64,000 bases of DNA from positions 204,228,001-204,292,000 of the forward strand of contig OX597815.1 in assembly GCA_951406725.2 (NCBI GenBank), given 5' to 3'. Below, piece after piece: positions 2,093 to 63,044 of the stretch (positions are counted from its first letter, which is position 1; each line of letters begins with the position of its first letter). The position numbers and the translations under genes were made by a program. Under the pieces are notes generated by a model. The model had not been told where the DNA came from. It made no database searches and saw only the letters and a list, made by a program, of their open reading frames with translations. This DNA comes from Octopus vulgaris (Eukaryota).

Positions 2093-2152
2093 CGCTTTTT
2101 GGGTGCAGACATTATCGAAGACCACACATAACCTCGATATCTGCCGTTCTCG

Positions 2153-4452
2153 GTTTCTTTATTAGCCACAAGGGCCCAAACATAGAGGGGGGACAAACAA
2201 GGACAGACAGGACACCACAGACGGGACAATACATAGACCGAATATGATGAGATGATTATATAATAATGGGATTATGAATGGCTGAATGCGCCCCTCATTA
2301 CTTGCATTGCCATTAATCTTTTTAAACTGTCCGTTTTTATCATGTATTTACATAATTAATTATCGTCTACCATTACAATTATTTGAACCGTTATATGTTC
2401 TCTAAGATTGTTCTTCTATTTTCCGATATTATTAAACATAACCTAAAACACTTACTCTTTCTTTTTCCTTTTTTTTTTCCTCTTTCTTTTTTCCTGTCCA
2501 TTTGACATACGTATTTACTTTTTAGTAATATTTCATCAGTGGTTCAATTTCTACTAAATCCACTACTGGTGGCAATTCTTTGAATTCCACCCTTACTCCT
2601 GGTAGGTCAATATAATCTCCACACATTTCTTGCAGTCTCTTATAACTTACCTCTTCAATTACTATCTCCTTCATATCCTCTGCATACATGTATGCTGGTA
2701 CCTTTACTCTTACTATTTGGTTGAACTTGAGTATTTTCTTTTCTGTTTCTATATTCTTCGGGTAGGTTACGTAATACCATACGCCATTTCCTTTTATTTT
2801 CTTTCCTCTATTTTGGCTTTTCTGTTCTCTCTTTTCCTCCTCCACTCTAAACAGTCTCTCCAACTCTTCTTCGGCCAGCTGAATTTCCGAATACTTTTCT
2901 ACCGGAGTAACTGGTATTTTTACTTGTAGCTCCACTTTCTTTTTACTTTCTTTCTCTGTCACCCTTTTGTCCGCCTTCCTGCTGACCTCTTTCACGGTTT
3001 CTTTTCTCATATCTTTTTTCTGGCGGAGAACCTATCCCTCCGCCCCACCTTCTCTTTTTTACAACAGTAGAATCATCATCTGTTTCCTTTGTCTCAACCT
3101 GTTCTACCCGGTCCCCGCTCTCTTGTCTCTGTACCTGCTCTGCTTGTTGCTTTTTCTGGGTGCACCATGCCTTCATGTGGCCTTTCTCACCACACCCAAA
3201 ACATAAAGGCGGCCTGCCCTCTACCTTCATTCGCAATGCAAAGCCGTCAGGCAGTACTATCGCTTCCGCAATCCTTTTTAAATCGTACACTGTTGCCTGG
3301 ATAGTGAGCTCTATCCCATATCCCCAGTAGTTGAGCTTGTTGGTTCTTGTGGCCTTTAATATTTTGGCCCCATCTTTCATATTGAACCTTATGGCTGTCA
3401 TGAGCCTTGCCTCTAGTTCTAGTTCTGGGGGTATTTGGCCTACTCGTACTCTGGCTACACGTTTGCCGCAGTACGACGGCAAAAGTATCCACCCCTCCGA
3501 TTTTATTGCCTCTGTTGCGTGTTTGATTGCCTCTTCTGACGTGAAGCACACATCCACGGTGGCACACTTCTTTCCTCTTGTTCTAAAAGTTGTTAACTTT
3601 TTAATATTTTTCAATACTTCTATCTCTTCCACTGTCGCAATCTCTATCTTTCTTGTTGCAATTCTCATAGTTTTATACGTGACTGTTCGCTTCGTTATGC
3701 TGTTTGTTAGCTCTGCAGGTGGCGTCAACTTTAACGTCTTGCCTTCCTTTTCCAGCAACTTTTCGCATGCTTTCATTTTTCAAGGTTCAACCTTCATTTT
3801 AAATGTCTCCAAAGTTTTATCTTCAGCTCATTTTCCAGTTGCGGCCGCATAACGGGGGCCGCCCGCTGGTGTTTTCTCCAATTTCATCAATGGGAAAAAT
3901 TACCATAAAAACAATAATTAACAATATCAACAAACAGCAATAACGAACAATTATTTAACGCTCTACTCACAAGAAAAACATTCCGTCTTTGAATACTTCA
4001 AAAGCGACACCTGCTATTCTGCTCTTCTCGGTTTCTTTATTAGCCACAAGGGCACAAACATAGAGGGGGACAAACAAGGACAGACAGGTCACCACAGAGG
4101 GAACAATACATAAAACGAATATGATGAGATGATTATACAATAATGGGGTTACGAATGGCTGCATGCGCCCCTCATTACATGCATTACCATTAATCTTTTT
4201 AAACTGTCCGTTTTTATTATGTATTTCCATAACAATTAATTATCGTCTACCATTACAATTATTTGAACCGTTATATGTTCTCTAAGATCGTTCTTCTATT
4301 TTCCGATATAATTAAACATCACATAAAACACTTATTCTCTCTTTTTCCTTTTTTTCTCCTTTTTCTTTTTTCTTTTCTTTGTTCCTGTCAATTTGACATG
4401 CTTATTTACTTTTTAGTAATATTTCATAAGTGGTTCAATTTCTACTAAATCC
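2153..4452 (-). mobile_element. ORF1-only (HAL1-like) Tx1-type non-LTR element plus an upstream 5'-truncated second copy, within one TSD
   Basis: TSD CTGCCGTTCTCG at 2141-2152 and 4454-4465. The segment 2147-2561 is repeated, diverged, at 4026-4451. The element has one gag-like ORF and no endonuclease or RT, and ends ...GTGGCTAATAAAGAAAC. Confidence 0.8.
2522..3887 (-). pseudogene. Disrupted ORF1/gag-like protein with CCHC zinc knuckle (~450 aa reconstructed)
   Basis: The ATG at 3887 is in frame with ORF 2943-3776, with two TGA stops in between. Contains CFGCGEKGHMKAWC (CX2CX4HX4C). A frameshift near 3010 continues into ORF 2522-3010. Homologous to the ORF1 remnant at 8915-9200. Confidence 0.8.
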
Positions 4453-4609
4453 GCTGCCGTTCTCGTTCTCCTTCGGAGGAGGGTCGTCTCGTCTGGTCTG
4501 AAACATTGAATGTCTTTTATCACCCGGCATCGTGAAGGTACGATATCCAGGTAGAAATCCCGCATCTAATGCGCGTATAAACAAAACACATACACAATGT
4601 GTCATCGAT

Positions 4610-5347
<738 letters not shown>

Positions 5348-5348
<1 letters not shown>

Positions 5349-6951
5349 GTTGCGGTAGACGCCCCCAGGTGAGAAGTGGGCTGGTCCACTACAAATAAAG
5401 AGTGGATTGACGCAGTCAGTCAGCGAACTACGCCACAGTGTACTAAAAGTGTCATATGTTGTTGTTTTTTTTATTCTGTTAATGTGGTAGACACCGTTAT
5501 TCCGAGGTTCCGAGTTCGCGTAAGTCGCTCGTTTGTTTCATGTAATTGTAACGTTATACTGTTGTTTTGCGTTTTTCTGCACTCAGTTTTTGCTGCCTTG
5601 CGGTGGTACTGCTAGCGTTTTTCCTCGGTTGAAGGGAAGATCGCTGTGAATGCTAAGACGGACAATGAGAGTCTTAGTTCGTCCCCTATGACCTCGTCCG
5701 AGGAGAACCTGAGAAGTCTGGAGAGGATTGACCAAGGAGTAGAAGAAAGGAAGAAAATAGACTTTGCAGCTGCGGCTAGTGATAAAAAAAAGAAGTCTGT
5801 ATCAACAAAAAGGAAATGCAAAAATACAAAGAAATGTTGAAGAGAGAACGATCGAGGTGAAGCTGTCAGCCGCCATCGACAACAGAAGATGTATCAAGGA
5901 AACCAGTATTGCATTCGGTACATATAACCCGAAATCCAACAAGGCGAAAATAGTGGCAAAAGAATAAATAGAAAAAGCAATAAGACCCATCTAGCAGGAT
6001 ACTATCTACTTTGCTAGAATAGAGAGAGGTGGGCAAGAAGAGGAAAAGAAGAAAACAGCAAATCAGTGAAGAAGAGCCCCAATCCATTCCCCCCACCCTT
6101 TCCCTCCGGCTCCACGTCACAAACACCCTCCCCCTGAAGACACCAGCCTTCTCCTTACCCCACCAGACACGAACACAAATAATTCGAACACGCAAGAGCC
6201 ACAAATTCCCAATCCCCCACCCGGGGAAAGGTACCTTTTCGTTTTATACAACGGTGCAAAGGTTTCAGTGAGAAAAGAAACTGAGATGGTGAACTCTGAC
6301 ATAGAGATGGACACGAAGGATTGTAAAGCGTTACACCCGAGTGTAAGGTGTTCCCCCATGTTGAAGGAGAATTATCACCAGCTAAGAGACAAATACAGGA
6401 GAGTGTCTACTATAGTGGAAGAGACATCGACCTGAACTCGTTACAGCCTAAGGTAAGATTGAGTGAAATTGCCCAGGGACAATAGGACTGAACGGTAGTT
6501 GTAACGTTAAAGCTTAGACTCAATTTTGGGCAGTAATTGTCACAGTAATGTTTTAACGGCATAAGTAAATGTTTTGTGATTGTGTACAAAAAGGGGGGAA
6601 AAAGAGCATGTAATTGCGCATAATAGGATCCAAGTATCATAGTATTTTGATTGTGTAGATGATGTTTTAGAAGAAAAAAAATGGTAAAAAGGAATTTAAT
6701 TTGTTGTAAAAAAAAAAAAAGATTCAAGAAACTCGGTCGTGGAGTCAAGGGGCATTCATTTCATTTTTCAATTCCATCTTTTCATTCGTTTTCTTTGTTT
6801 TTTCTCCCACTTTGTCAGTCCTTGTTTGTTCCCCCCCCCCCCTATATTAGGCCCAGTATGGCCAAATGCAGAAATACAGTCAGCGAGGTACGCTGTTCGG
6901 GCCAGTCCCGCCGAGACGACGAGACACGTCGTCATAATGCGGGACATAACA
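5348..6951 (+). mobile_element. Putative short solo LTR (~145 bp) interrupted by the 5427-6876 insertion
   Basis: Starts TGTT (5348) and ends AACA (6951). AATAAA lies near 5394. The segment is GC-rich and flanked by microsatellite. No clear TSD. Confidence 0.45.
5427..6876 (+). mobile_element. Second non-autonomous Tx1-tail element with decayed ORF1-like coding and no RT
   Basis: TSD CAGTCAGCGA at 5417-5426 and 6877-6886. 3' end TGTCAGTCCTTGTTTGTTCCCC...TATATTAGGCCCAGTATGGCCAAATGCAGAAATA. Broken K/E-rich ORFs span about 5646-6490. Confidence 0.7.
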
Positions 6952-7654: not shown

Positions 7655-9865
<2,211 letters not shown>

Positions 9866-38079: not shown

Positions 38080-38275
38080 TAGGACAAACAAGGACTGATA
38101 ACGGATTAAGTCGATTATATCGATCCCAGTGCGTAACTGGTACTTAATTTATCGACCCCGAAAGGATGAAAGGCAGAGTCGACCTCGGCGGAATTTGAAC
38201 TCACAACGTAACGGCAGACGAAATACCGCTAAGCATTTCGCCCGGCGTGCTAACGTTTCTGCCAGCTCGTCGCCT
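38080..38275 (-). mobile_element. SINE family C
   Basis: Head, GCCTTTCATCCTTTCGGGGTCGATAAATTAAGTACCAG core, and partial GTCCTTGTTTGTCC tail. Confidence 0.88.
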
Positions 38276-40380: not shown

Positions 40381-41154
40381 TGACTTGAAAATCCGCTTTT
40401 GTTCTCTACAGTTAATTGATGTACTGCCATTGAGAACGATCGGCTGAAATAACTAGGAACTTATTTAAGGACTTCTCAATCGTATCTCTATTTTTAAGCG
40501 AGGTCTCAAAGGATCTCTTATATTTCCGACGATAAGAGATCGGAACTGAGCTCCAAATGCACAACGCAGAAAGAGATGCCACAAGATATTTTATGTTGTG
40601 AAATATCATTCCGTCAATCTGTTACGCTTGACTGATACTTTATTTATCGACCTCGATATGATGAATGGCAAAGCTGACCTAAGCAGGACTGAACTGGCAC
40701 AAATGCCATTAGACATATTATCCAACGCCCTAATGACTTTTCCAATTCAGTGCAATACATAATATATTGCTGATTAGTATATCATTATTTAGTATATTAC
40801 TGGTTGGTATATTATTAGTTAGTATATTACTGATTAGTATACTGTGCTTCAGGATATGACTTGAAGTTATGATATCTGCCCCAAGTGCATACAAAGAAAA
40901 GATTATTCTAGAGTGATTTGAACTTGAAACTTAAAAGAACGTTGTAAATATCACAGCTTTAAGTATTACCATAGTTACTAATTTATTTTTATGCACAAGT
41001 TTTTGAGTTTCTCAAAAGCAAATTAAGCTTTTTTTAAAAAAAAATTCGTAGTAACGTAAATGGAATGGCTTCACCAGAATTGAAATCGGAAAGTAATCAT
41101 GGCTCCGGTTTAACAGGTAACATATTTTACCACTATTATTTGGATTTGTTTATA

Positions 41155-41385
41155 TGGCGGCGAGCTGGCAGAATCGTTAGCACGCCGGGCGAAATACGTA
41201 GCCGTATTTCGTCTGCCGTTGCGTTCTGAGTTCAAATTCCGCCGAGGTCGACTTTGCCTTTCATCCTTTCGAGGTCGATAAATTAAGTATAAGTTACGCA
41301 CTGTAATCGACATAATCCGTCTGTCCGTCTGTCTGTCCTTGTTTGTTCCCTCTATGTTTAGCCCCTTGTGGGTAGTAAAGAAACA
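41155..41385 (+). mobile_element. SINE family C, full length with Tx1-type tail
   Basis: GGCGGCGAGCTGGCAGAATCG...GAGTTCAAATTCC, Meta-like core, then GTCTGTCCTTGTTTGTTCCCTCTATGTTTAGCCCCTTGTGGGTAGTAAAGAAAC. Confidence 0.9.
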
Positions 41386-42000: not shown

Positions 42001-42039
42001 TTACATATAACTCTAATATTATGTGCACATTATGAAAAG

Positions 42040-42480
42040 CAGCGAGCTAGCATAATTGTTCCCGCGCCGGAAAAAGTGCTTAGCAGCACTGAGCTGTCTT
42101 TACGTTTTCAGTTCACATTCCACAGACGTCGACTATGCCTTTCATCCTTTCGTAGTCGATAAAATAAATACTAGCTGAGCATTGGGGGTCGATGTAACTG
42201 ACTTACCCACTTCCCCGAAATTGCTAGCCTTGTACCAAAATTTGAAACCAATATGCATATATCTGTCAGTAGGCTGGCAGAACCGTTAGCATGCCAGCAA
42301 AATGCTCTGTAGCATTATGTCTGTCTTCACATTCTGAGTTCAAATTCCACCGAGATCGACTTTGCCTTTTATGTTCTCGGAGGCGATAATATAAGTACCA
42401 GTTAAGCACTTGGGTCAATGAAATCGCCTTACCCCTTCCTCCAAACTTGCTGGTCTTGTGCCAAAACTTGAAACCAATAT
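42040..42480 (+). mobile_element. Two tandem old family-C-related SINEs with the alternative tail (CCTTGTGCCAAAATTTGAAACC-like)
   Basis: Degenerate head plus GCCTTTCATCCTTTCG core, twice. Similar old copies lie near 25880-26230, 40620-40750, 56325-56760 and 57990-58420. Confidence 0.75.
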
Positions 42481-52260: not shown

Positions 52261-52685
52261 AAGAATAGGTTGTTGATCTGGGGTGAGAGCTATATCTTGG
52301 AAATCCGCCGGCCCAATGGTTTCCCTTCGTGGCAGAATTAATAGTCAAAACTATTTAAGCATTTTATTTTATCAAATTCATCCTATCGTTGTGGAACTGT
52401 TTCCGGAGGGTAACGCAATCTTTCAGAATGATAAAGCACCAATTCACACAGCTAAAGTTGTTACTGAATGGCTCGAGGAATATTCTAGTGAAGTTGAACA
52501 TCTTATCTGGCCACCACAGTCCCCAGATCTCAATATTATTGAACATTTATGGTGCACTTTAGAAAAACAAGTAAGGAGTCGATATCCTCCACCATCATCA
52601 CTACAAGAACTGAGAATTGTTTTAGCTGAAGAATGGACAAAAATTCCTTTTAAAACAATTCAAACTTAGTACGAGTCCATACCTC

Positions 52686-53357
52686 TTGGTGGATTCCTCC
52701 TTTTCGCCTTCGGCCCAGTGCGTCCATGCTGCCAACAAAGCACGCGGAATTCTGTTCTTGATTCGACGGTCATTCGGAATGCTCACAGCAGCCATATTCC
52801 TACCACTCTATGTCACGCTGGTGAGACCCATATTGGAGTATGGGATTCAAGCCTCTTCTCCTTATCTCCTCAAAGACATACAGCATCTCGAAAGAGTCCA
52901 GAAGCTGGCTACCCGCATGGTTCATGGTCTCAAAAATTTGTCCTACGAAGAAAGGCTGAGGACGCTCGACCTTTATTCTCTTGAAAAACGCCGCCGCCGT
53001 GGTGATCTCATTCTCGCCCACAACATCATAAGCGGAAAGTGTAACCTCTCGAAAGAGCTGTTCTTCACTCCTGCTCCAGAGCGTCGGCTGCGGGGTCATT
53101 CCGAAAAGCTCTACCTGCGACGATTTCATCTCAATCGAAGGAGAGGAGCTTTCTCCGTCCGGGTTGCGGATCCGTGGAACAAGCTGCCAGACGAGATGGT
53201 GAAGATGCCGACGAACGCTTTGTTCAAAGCCTCCCTTGACTTCAAGTGGCCTGAACTCTTTACATGAACACCACCCTGTACTTAACTCCATGTCCCCCTA
53301 CATGGCCTTGCTATTTGCTTTTGAGCCAAATTAACTAACTAACTAACTAACTAACTA
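52686..53357 (+). mobile_element. Young CR1-clade LINE 3' fragment, copy 1, (TAAC)n tail
   Basis: Uninterrupted 193-codon frame (LYVTLVRPILEYG...LERVQKLATRMV...LSYEERL...FSVRVADPWNKLP). TSD ACCTC at 52681-52685 and 53358-53362. Confidence 0.93.
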
Positions 53358-53418
53358 ACCTCGTAGAATTCAAGCTGTCCTTTTAAAACAATTCAAACTT
53401 AGTACGAGTCCATACCTC

Positions 53419-54060
53419 TTGGTGGATTCCTCCTTTTCGCCTTCGGCCCAGTGCGTCCATGCTGCCAACAAAGCACGCGGAATTCTGTTCTTGATTCGAC
53501 GGTCATTCGGAATGCTCACAGCAGCCATATTCCTACCACTCTATGTCACGCTGGTGAGACCCATATTGGAGTATGGGATTCAAGCCTCTTCTCCTTATCT
53601 CCTCAAAGACATACAGCATCTCGAAAGAGTCCAGAAGCTGGCTACCCGCATGGTTCATGGTCTCAAAAATTTGTCCTACGAAGAAAGGCTGAGGACGCTC
53701 GACCTTTATTCTCTTGAAAAACGCCGCCGCCGTGGTGATCTCATTCTCGCCCACAACATCATAAGCGGAAAGTGTAACCTCTCGAAAGAGCTGTTCTTCA
53801 CTCCTGCTCCAGAGCGTCGGCTGCGGGGTCATTCCGAAAAGCTCTACCTGCGACGATTTCATCTCAATCGAAGGAGAGGAGCTTTCTCCGTCCGGGTTGC
53901 GGATCCGTGGAACAAGCTGCCAGACGAGATGGTGAAGATGCCGACGAACGCTTTGTTCAAAGCCTCACTTGACTTCAAGTGGCCTGAACTCTTTACATGA
54001 ACACCACCCTGTACTTAACTCCATGTCCCCCTACATGGCCTTGCTATTTGCTTTTGAGCC

Positions 54061-56325: not shown

Positions 56326-56766
56326 AGGCGCGGCGATCTGGCAGAATCGTTAGCTCACGGGATAAAATCCTGAGCGGCATTCTGCCCGTCTTCATACTCT
56401 GTGACCAGATTCCGTTAAGATTGACTTTGGTCTTCACCCTTTCCGGGTCGATAAAATAAAGTACCAGTCCATCACTGGGTCGATATAATCGAATGGCTCC
56501 TTTCCCCTCAGAATCGCTAGCCTTCCGTCGAAATTAGAAGGAATTATTTAAAGCATCGAGATGGCAGAATCATTTGCGAGTTGCACAAAATGCTTAGCAG
56601 ATTTCCTTCCGGTACTTTACGTCTTGAGTTCAAATTTCGTCGTTGTAGAATTTGTCTTTCATCATTTTGGGGTCGATAAAATAAGTACAAGTTGAACTCT
56701 GGCATCGAATAATCCCGTTCTCTCAACTTGTTGTCCCTGTGCCTATATTAGAAAGAATTATTATTA

Positions 56767-57982: not shown

Positions 57983-58539
57983 GTGTATAAGGCGGCGAGC
58001 TGGCAGAATTTTTATTGCACCGGACAAATTACCTGCATTTTTTCGTATTTATGCTGTCTATTCAAATTCCGCCGAAGGTGATATTACCGATCATCCTGCT
58101 GGGTTGATACCAGCTAAGCACTCGGTCAATAAATTTGACTTGCCTCCTCCCGCCAAGTTACTGGCCTTGAGCCCATAGTAGAAAAAATTATTGTTGTTGT
58201 TGATAGGGCAGCGAGCTGACCGAGTCGTTAACGCATCGGGAAAAATACCCGGTAGCATTTTATCTTCCTTGACGTTGTGAGTTGAAATTCCGTCGAGATC
58301 AAATTTGCTTTTCATCCTGTCGAGGTCGATAGAGTAAGTACCTATTGAGCACTGGGATCGATGTAATCGACTTACCCTTCTCTCAAAACTATTGGAGTTG
58401 GGCCAAACTTTGAGACGAATAACTATAATTGTCGATAGAAATATCAATCCTTTGTATTAATGCAAAAGTATACTACGTGCATGTCTATGCATGAATGTAT
58501 ACCTACACGTGCAAGTACACATAAATGTGTGTATTTGTG

Positions 58540-62463: not shown

Positions 62464-63044
62464 TATTTCTTTATTGCCCACAAGGAGCTAAACATAGAGG
62501 GGACAAACAAGGACAGACAAAGGGTTTAAGTCGATTATATCGACCCCAGTGCGTAACTGGTACTTAGGTTTTTCAACCTCGAAAGGATGAAAGGTAAAGT
62601 CGACCTCGGCGGAATTTGAATTCAGAACGTAACGGCAAACGAAATACCTATTTCTTTATTACCCACAAGGAGCTAAACACAGAGAGGACAGACAAAGAGA
62701 TTAAGTCGATTACATCGACCCCAGTGCATAACTGGTACTTAATTTATCGACTCCGAAAGGATGAAAGGCAAAGCCGACCTCGGCGGAATTTGAACTCAGA
62801 ACGTAGCGGCCGACAAAATACCTATTTCTTTATTACCCACAAGGGACTAAACATAGAAGGGACAAACATAGGTATTAAGTTGATTACATCGACCCCAGTG
62901 CGTAACTGGTAGATATTTAATCGACCCCGGAAGGATGAAAAGCAAAGTCGATCTCGGCAAAATTTGAACTCAGAGCGTCACGGCAGACGAAATACCGCTG
63001 AGCATTTCACCCGGCGTGCTCACGATTCTGCCAGCTCGCCGCCT
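62464..63044 (-). mobile_element. SINE family C trimer: one head and three core+tail units
   Basis: Unit boundaries near 62647 and 62820. TSD TGTAGAGTTTCC at 62452-62463 and 63045-63056. Confidence 0.88.

Follow-up and report, generated by a model that had tools for sequence, protein, structure and literature searches.

A decayed retroelement with ORF1 as its only gene was found on the minus strand of the window, which is the whole 64-kb stretch of Octopus vulgaris DNA that was analysed, and a 5'-truncated copy of it, overlooked in the first-pass annotation, directly adjoins it (Table 1, elements 1 and 2). The locus probably, though by no means certainly, represents an octopod HAL1-like non-autonomous family whose members relied on a common 3' tail to borrow ORF2p and re-inserted at a preferred site, and the data are best explained if this ORF1-only family arose when an L1/Tx1-type LINE lost its ORF2. 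Element 1 is now a fossil, and because its ORF1 is broken it cannot supply a chaperone. The anatomy fits the ORF1-only L1/Tx1-type element proposed in the first-pass annotation.

Table 1. Coordinates of element 1, its target repeats and related elements in the window
Feature	Positions	Strand	Support or remark
Element 1, full-length ORF1-only non-LTR retroelement, ~1.87 kb	2153..4018	-	
5' leader, 131 nt	3888..4018	-	5' end placed by target repeat only
ORF1, ~455 codons, broken	2522..3887	-	P0002 covers N-terminus and both pieces
Two RRM-like beta-alpha-beta domains (predicted)	3213..3689	-	model pLDDT 80; Foldseek
Single CCHC zinc knuckle	3156..3203	-	PF00098 E 0.018
Conserved ~90-aa C-terminal ORF1 domain	2525..2800	-	4 octopus proteins
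3' UTR of element 1, 369 nt, without poly(A) and without ORF2 remnant	2153..2521	-	
3' tail of element 1, common to SINEs and L1/Tx1-type ends	2153..2210	-	~58 nt
Target-site repeat copy A, flanking the 3' end of element 1	2141..2152	.	12/12 to 4454-4465
Target-site repeat copy B, between elements 1 and 2	4019..4030	.	10/12 to A and C
Target-site repeat copy C, truncated 5' end of element 2	4454..4465	.	2-nt microhomology
Element 2, 5'-truncated copy	4031..4453	-	90.0% over 439 nt; C-terminal peptide match
Second, divergent ORF2-less element, 1.44 kb	5434..6876	+	same tail type
Internally deleted L1/Tx1-type LINE, RT/zf-RVT ORF2 remnant, related tail	7665..9800	-	5' end approximate
SINE copy with same 3' tail, 13-bp TSD	41150..41384	+	
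Three head-to-tail SINE copies with same tail	62466..63043	-	

Anatomy of element 1 and of its ORF1

The minus-strand unit with a short leader and the 3' UTR of about 370 nt that had been described from the letters alone were both recovered, at 131 nt and 369 nt, respectively, and the homologues P0002 and P0007 start at 3881, beside the leader. Element 1 terminates in AATAAAGAAAC with no poly(A), and all three frames of its 3' UTR are short and closed. The earlier claim that endonuclease (EN) and RT are missing was borne out, in that the related ORF2 proteins P0157, P0159 and P0160 match the window only at 7972-8915, and the comparison of the ORF2 remnant of the LINE at 7665-9800 with element 1 gave a single match with an E of 0.41. 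Among the public runs listed, 17 of 24 contain part of 2093-4612 (best share 0.39); no RNA run containing it was listed, and these runs were not used as evidence.

The single ORF of about 450 codons claimed earlier proved to be one gene of about 455 codons, but its frame is interrupted by two TGA stops (3828-3830 and 3780-3782) and by a frameshift near 3025-3058, and it is split into pieces of 278 aa and 169 aa. That the pieces belong to one gene is shown by P0002 of Octopus bimaculoides, a protein that aligns with the N-terminus and then with each piece in turn and has the same endpoint. The CCHC knuckle noted earlier was likewise found, with a PF00098 match that lies below Pfam's cut-off in element 1 and exceeds it in the close homologues P0001, P0002 and P0005. 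With the ORF1 model as the Foldseek query, the best matches were tandem RRM proteins with E values of 2.1e-4 to 1e-2, and in a wide structure search residues 103-189 were ferredoxin-like, which is a common fold, with a best Z of 9.0 and an rmsd of 2.5 over 80 aligned residues. The predicted RRMs together with the single knuckle mark the product of element 1 as a type I ORF1p; Transposase_22, the type II ORF1p, gave no Pfam match in it.

Four octopus proteins share the C-terminal domain at 49-72% identity and terminate at the same position as ORF1, and the domain is predicted to fold with a pLDDT of 84. Compared with known folds it gave no clear match, the best Z being 5.7, no Foldseek match having an E below 0.001 and the Atlas value being 0.87. 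In 7 of the 154 proteins fetched, the same seven that also went into building the profile of the domain, it lies at most one residue from the end of the protein; since it closes these proteins, ORF1 is whole and the domain is not a remnant of ORF2. In most comparisons with homologues, all of them taken without genomic context, the domains were kept better than the linkers, with 77/106 for domain sequence in comparison to 21/51 and 22/61 for the linkers in P0001, and 63/77 in comparison to 18/53 and 26/67 in P0004. At the level of sequence conservation, this pattern shows that selection acted on the ORF1 protein family, with no implication that it did so in ORF2-less copies; because the homologues lack genomic context, their conservation may stem from autonomous LINEs. 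No intact ORF1 linked to an ORF2-less unit was present among the material examined.

The 278-aa piece had seven close relatives among 880 candidates, six of them named Octopus, and at E 0.001 it matched 349 proteins among representatives clustered at 50%, the 150 of these that were listed being mostly fragments. By source name, 22 of 24 proteins picked by hand from the 154 fetched were from Octopus or Argonauta. Four of the 154 (P0008, P0009, P0081 and P0117) match through knuckle repeats only. Pfam listed no EN or RT family in any of the 154 (the best five families being shown for four of them), and no fused ORF1-ORF2 protein was seen among 2752 longer candidates; this absence is weak evidence, because ORF1 and ORF2 lie in separate frames. 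No related locus was found in viral or metagenome contigs, and a 22-nt tail pattern had no match in three collections, none of these sources being expected to contain octopus DNA.

Several gene models were unusual. In the O. bimaculoides models P0013 and P0138 the order of the ORF1 parts is disturbed, as splicing between ORF1 copies in tandem would produce, and the octopus models P0020, P0105, P0129 and P0149 fuse ORF1 pieces with other sequence, including WD40, LDL-receptor A and RGS domains in the first three; these four are likely annotation chimeras or cases of exonisation. The results suggest that a group of gene models annotated in octopus as 'CCHC-type' represents copies of retroelement ORF1.

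Tandem copy, shared tail and neighbouring elements

Element 2 retains ~13 codons from the end of ORF1 together with its stop and the whole 3' UTR, and has the same end as element 1. The junction of the ORF1 stop with the UTR is therefore not single-copy, and the question raised in the first-pass annotation of whether this junction is unique was answered in the negative within the window. The 12-bp TSD claimed there was correct in part: a repeat identical at 12/12 exists, but at 4454-4465, and the repeats directly flanking element 1 agree at only 10/12. On both strands of the 64 kb, the 12-mer occurred at 10/12 or better in four places, three of which are these junctions, the fourth, at 8497, being unrelated. 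The truncated end of element 2 coincides with a target repeat and shows a 2-nt microhomology, as is typical of 5'-truncated LINE copies. Over the 3'-terminal 288 nt the two elements had 270 identities, 17 substitutions and 4 gap columns, and their divergence, counted with a low-complexity T-rich segment omitted, was ~6% (17 substitutions in 287 aligned bases). Two stops were seen in ORF1, in comparison to 2.5 expected at 3% decay per copy and 8.5 at 10% (P 0.01). The divergence and the stop counts indicate that the two elements derive from nearly the same source; being adjacent, they are not independent loci and do not demonstrate dispersal.

The tandem was inserted into a non-microsatellite island of ~210 bp (2093-2152 and 4466-4612) that is bordered by TA repeats and, by eye, resembles a Penelope end. 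No second copy of it was found within the 64-kb window, and Rfam gave only microsatellite-driven matches below threshold, with no match for the right flank.

The last 70 nt of element 1 are matched by seven other ends in the window, each with 0/1000 shuffles. The matches were 59/70, 49/56, 40/50 and 43/50 for four SINE copies, 39/58 for the LINE, 45/62 for the end at ~6870 and 39/53 for a fragment at 175 that lies within a GATA repeat; the seven were picked by eye or by blast, and the same set ranks first in a window-wide blast. The tail itself is 87.9% identical over 58 nt to 41329-41384 and 87.5% identical over 56 nt to 62466-62519. Since the SINE uses the same tail, it probably depends on the same ORF2p. 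The body of the SINE was matched 13 times in the window, and the match reached the tail in 4 of the 13. No unusual fold of the tail was seen against shuffles (six tails, z of -1.2 to +0.8) and no stable stem-loop was detected; a tRNA gene search of the SINE head, which we presume to be tRNA-like, found nothing. The SINEs at 38084-38274, 42039-42410, 56330-56715 and 57986-58368 resemble the 41150 SINE in head and body, the match stopping before the tail, and may carry other tails. The fragment at 175-288 on the minus strand is a short 3' end with a related tail inside the GATA microsatellite, which suggests another family with a microsatellite target.

The likeness of ORF1 to that of an RT-bearing LINE, read by eye in the first-pass annotation, was upheld by an ORF1 profile built without any sequence from the window, which matched the ORF1 remnant of this LINE (about 8944-9426) with iE values of 1.1e-17, 4.1e-13 and 5.3e-5. 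When ORF1 of element 1 was compared directly with the remnant, the score was reached in 0/500 shuffles for two frames and in 27/500 for the third. The ORF2 remnant of the LINE matches P0157 from 8915 to 7972, and relatives of its RT piece contain RVT_1 in 6/6 cases and zf-RVT as well in 4/6, an arrangement we take to be the L1/Tx1-type ORF2 layout; none of these relatives bears the name of a clade. Its tail is related to that of element 1, but the body of its UTR is unlike (43/300 shuffles). The LINE passes from mid-ORF1 to mid-RT at 8915-8944, that is, through a large internal deletion, and no TSD was found for it. An autonomous partner of element 1 was not found in the window. Elsewhere, two identical 213-codon frames in tandem (52626-53267 and 53359-54000) resemble the C-terminus of a LINE ORF2 and are candidates for a recent duplication or an assembly artefact.

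The divergent element at 5434-6876 has an ORF1-family remnant at 5830-6018 (iE 7.8e-6), no ORF2 match, a tail of the same type and a TSD of 15/17 at 5417-5433 and 6877-6893. Its C-terminal frame had been considered by eye as the C-terminal domain of ORF1, and was rejected because the profile did not match. This element also lacks much of ORF1, so that it lends support to an ORF2-less lineage of wider extent without proving one. It splits a GC-richer sequence of ~170 bp (5347-5433 and 6877-6950) that has a TG start, a CA end and AATAAA and is, by eye, a candidate short solo LTR; some crocodilian Tx1 families favour LTR elements as targets, according to the available part of PMC4494074.

Proposed mechanism and alternative origins

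Under the family reading, a source element would be transcribed from its short leader and would make its own ORF1p (RRM-RRM-CCHC), which would coat its RNA in cis. The ORF2p of an autonomous partner would bind the conserved ~58-nt 3' tail, nick a preferred target and copy the RNA by target-primed reverse transcription, and the insertion would leave duplications of 12-17 bp. Because the duplication recreates the target, a second insertion, 5'-truncated, could have landed beside the first.

The points that count against the family reading are that there is one tandem locus, that its ORF1 is broken, that no autonomous partner was found in the window, that the tail shows no unusual fold and that the middle target repeat agrees at 10/12 whereas the outer pair is identical. 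The repeats would be explained equally well by a one-step dimer, in which one event copied the read-through RNA of a tandem located elsewhere and was truncated in the upstream unit. This origin of the tandem, which would be compatible with the family reading, is unlikely, since it is no rare event for 12 nt to carry two changes when divergence is ~6% (estimated at about 0.13), and comparable tandems are read as sequential insertions in the part of PMC4494074 available. It is also conceivable, though quite unlikely, that a full-length LINE lost its ORF2 once, either in the DNA or in one insertion, and that element 2 is a local duplicate or re-insertion with no family behind it. The adjacency of the two elements agrees with this, the two could have separated shortly after insertion given their ~6% divergence and the two stops, and the LINE at 7665-9800 shows that internal deletions happen. 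On the other hand, a duplication of DNA would require that a subsequent deletion stopped precisely at the target repeat, the missing part is exactly ORF2 with ORF1 complete to its stop, and 1 kb separates the tandem from another ORF2-less relative that has a TSD.

The junction common to the two copies could arise with no selection on ORF1 if RNAs of an autonomous LINE repeatedly lost ORF2 at the same cryptic sites, by splicing or template jump, and were then retrotransposed as dead-end products. Spliced L1 insertions have a precedent in the available part of PMC5860796, although the SpIREs of human L1 are spliced within the 5' UTR/ORF1 and not across ORF2. If this were so, a full-length parent should be abundant, and its ORF1 and UTR should be almost identical to those of the copies; the lack of EN/RT in the 154 proteins and of a fused protein among the longer ones speaks against such a parent, weakly given the separate frames, and we regard this origin as very unlikely. 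A domesticated ORF1 host gene of the L1TD1 or ZCCHC3 kind, or its retrocopy, is hardly credible: the look-alikes by features do include ZCCHC3 RNA-binding-domain clusters (score 0.90) and the homologues are annotated as host proteins, but the frame is broken, there are a TSD, a tandem partial copy and a LINE/SINE-type tail, and 349 proteins match at 50% clustering, those among the 150 listed being mostly fragments.

A wider proposition is possible but doubtful, namely that octopods hold an old and diversified ORF1-only lineage, of which two or more divergent kinds occur within 5 kb here, and an abundant SINE, all gathered around one L1/Tx1-type enzyme through the shared tail, and that ORF1p, with a C-terminal domain of no named family, may be provided in trans by the ORF1-only members. 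If such a guild existed, the partner of a major octopus SINE would be named, and an L1-clade element of an animal would, as is rarely seen, recognise its 3' end stringently.

Relation to published work and to known systems

No report of a cephalopod or Tx1 ORF1-only family was found in the open literature searched. The curated O. vulgaris library contains 80 L1-Tx1 families, so that an ORF1-only family may sit there unnamed; the available part of that work (PMC13282606) does not refer to HAL1, to ORF1 or to non-autonomous elements, and the available parts of PMC9115989, PMC8967140, PMC4758252, PMC4824008 and PMC3747384 contain neither such an element nor a LINE partner for an octopus SINE. SINEs make up 11.6% of the O. 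vulgaris genome, and of 900 SINE families with recent activity 893 have no classification (PMC13282606, in part). The additions of most use are the tandem copy and the tail common to a SINE, an ORF1-only element and a LINE, and the common tail provides a testable partner for an octopus SINE. If the family reading is true, ORF1-only parasitism arose once more within L1/Tx1, this time with an ORF1 of another architecture, and would support the view that ORF1p is required in cis and ORF2p can be borrowed (PMC3627910, in part).

ORF1-only LINEs are already known in HAL1, HeT-A and Ag-Sponge, and element 1 would work in the way that they do. HAL1 (half-L1) of mammals is a non-autonomous member of the L1 clade that encodes only ORF1p and retains the 5' and 3' parts (PMC5753468 and PMC5786205, in part), with ORF1p acting in cis and ORF2p borrowed in trans (PMC5786205 and PMC3627910, in part). 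Element 1 is similar in being an ORF1-only derivative of an L1-type LINE, but the ORF1p of HAL1 is of type II (Transposase_22) and that of element 1 of type I (RRM and CCHC), the types being those in the available part of PMC5203782, and element 1 has in addition no poly(A), a tail shared with SINEs, one target site used again and a mollusc host. With its type I ORF1 and without a poly(A) end, it falls outside strict mammalian HAL1. HeT-A (Jockey clade) and Ag-Sponge (CR1 clade) are bipartite non-autonomous LINEs bearing ORF1, as described in the part of PMC5786205 available. They belong to other clades, whereas element 1 links to an ORF2 with RVT_1 and zf-RVT and, judged from the window alone, is not telomeric.

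In non-mammalian animals, a type I ORF1p of RRM and CCHC agrees with membership of the Tx1 clade (PMC5203782, in part), although type I ORF1 is not exclusive to that clade. Tx1, Keno, Kibi, Koshi and crocodilian Tx1-Mar insert into other repeats, target preference being defined as more than 20% of flanks of one kind, and copies of the Tx1-mobilised SINEU-3 occur in tandems that sandwich a TSD and are read as sequential insertions (all from the available part of PMC4494074). The tandem at 2153-4453, with two copies at one 12-bp site and the TSD between them, resembles these tandems. The Tx1-clade families named encode ORF2 and SINEU-3 encodes nothing, whereas element 1 encodes ORF1 only. SINEs with L1-clade 3' ends are rare, with only three among 58 pairs, and include ZmSINE2/3 with LINE1-1_ZM in maize and SINEX-3_CR with L1-1_CR in Chlamydomonas, as given in the part of PMC3472496 available. 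As in the maize and Chlamydomonas pairs, a SINE and an L1-type element of the octopus have a common 3' end, but here the host is an animal, the tail is common to a SINE, an ORF1-only element and an RT-bearing LINE, and no stable stem-loop was detected in it.
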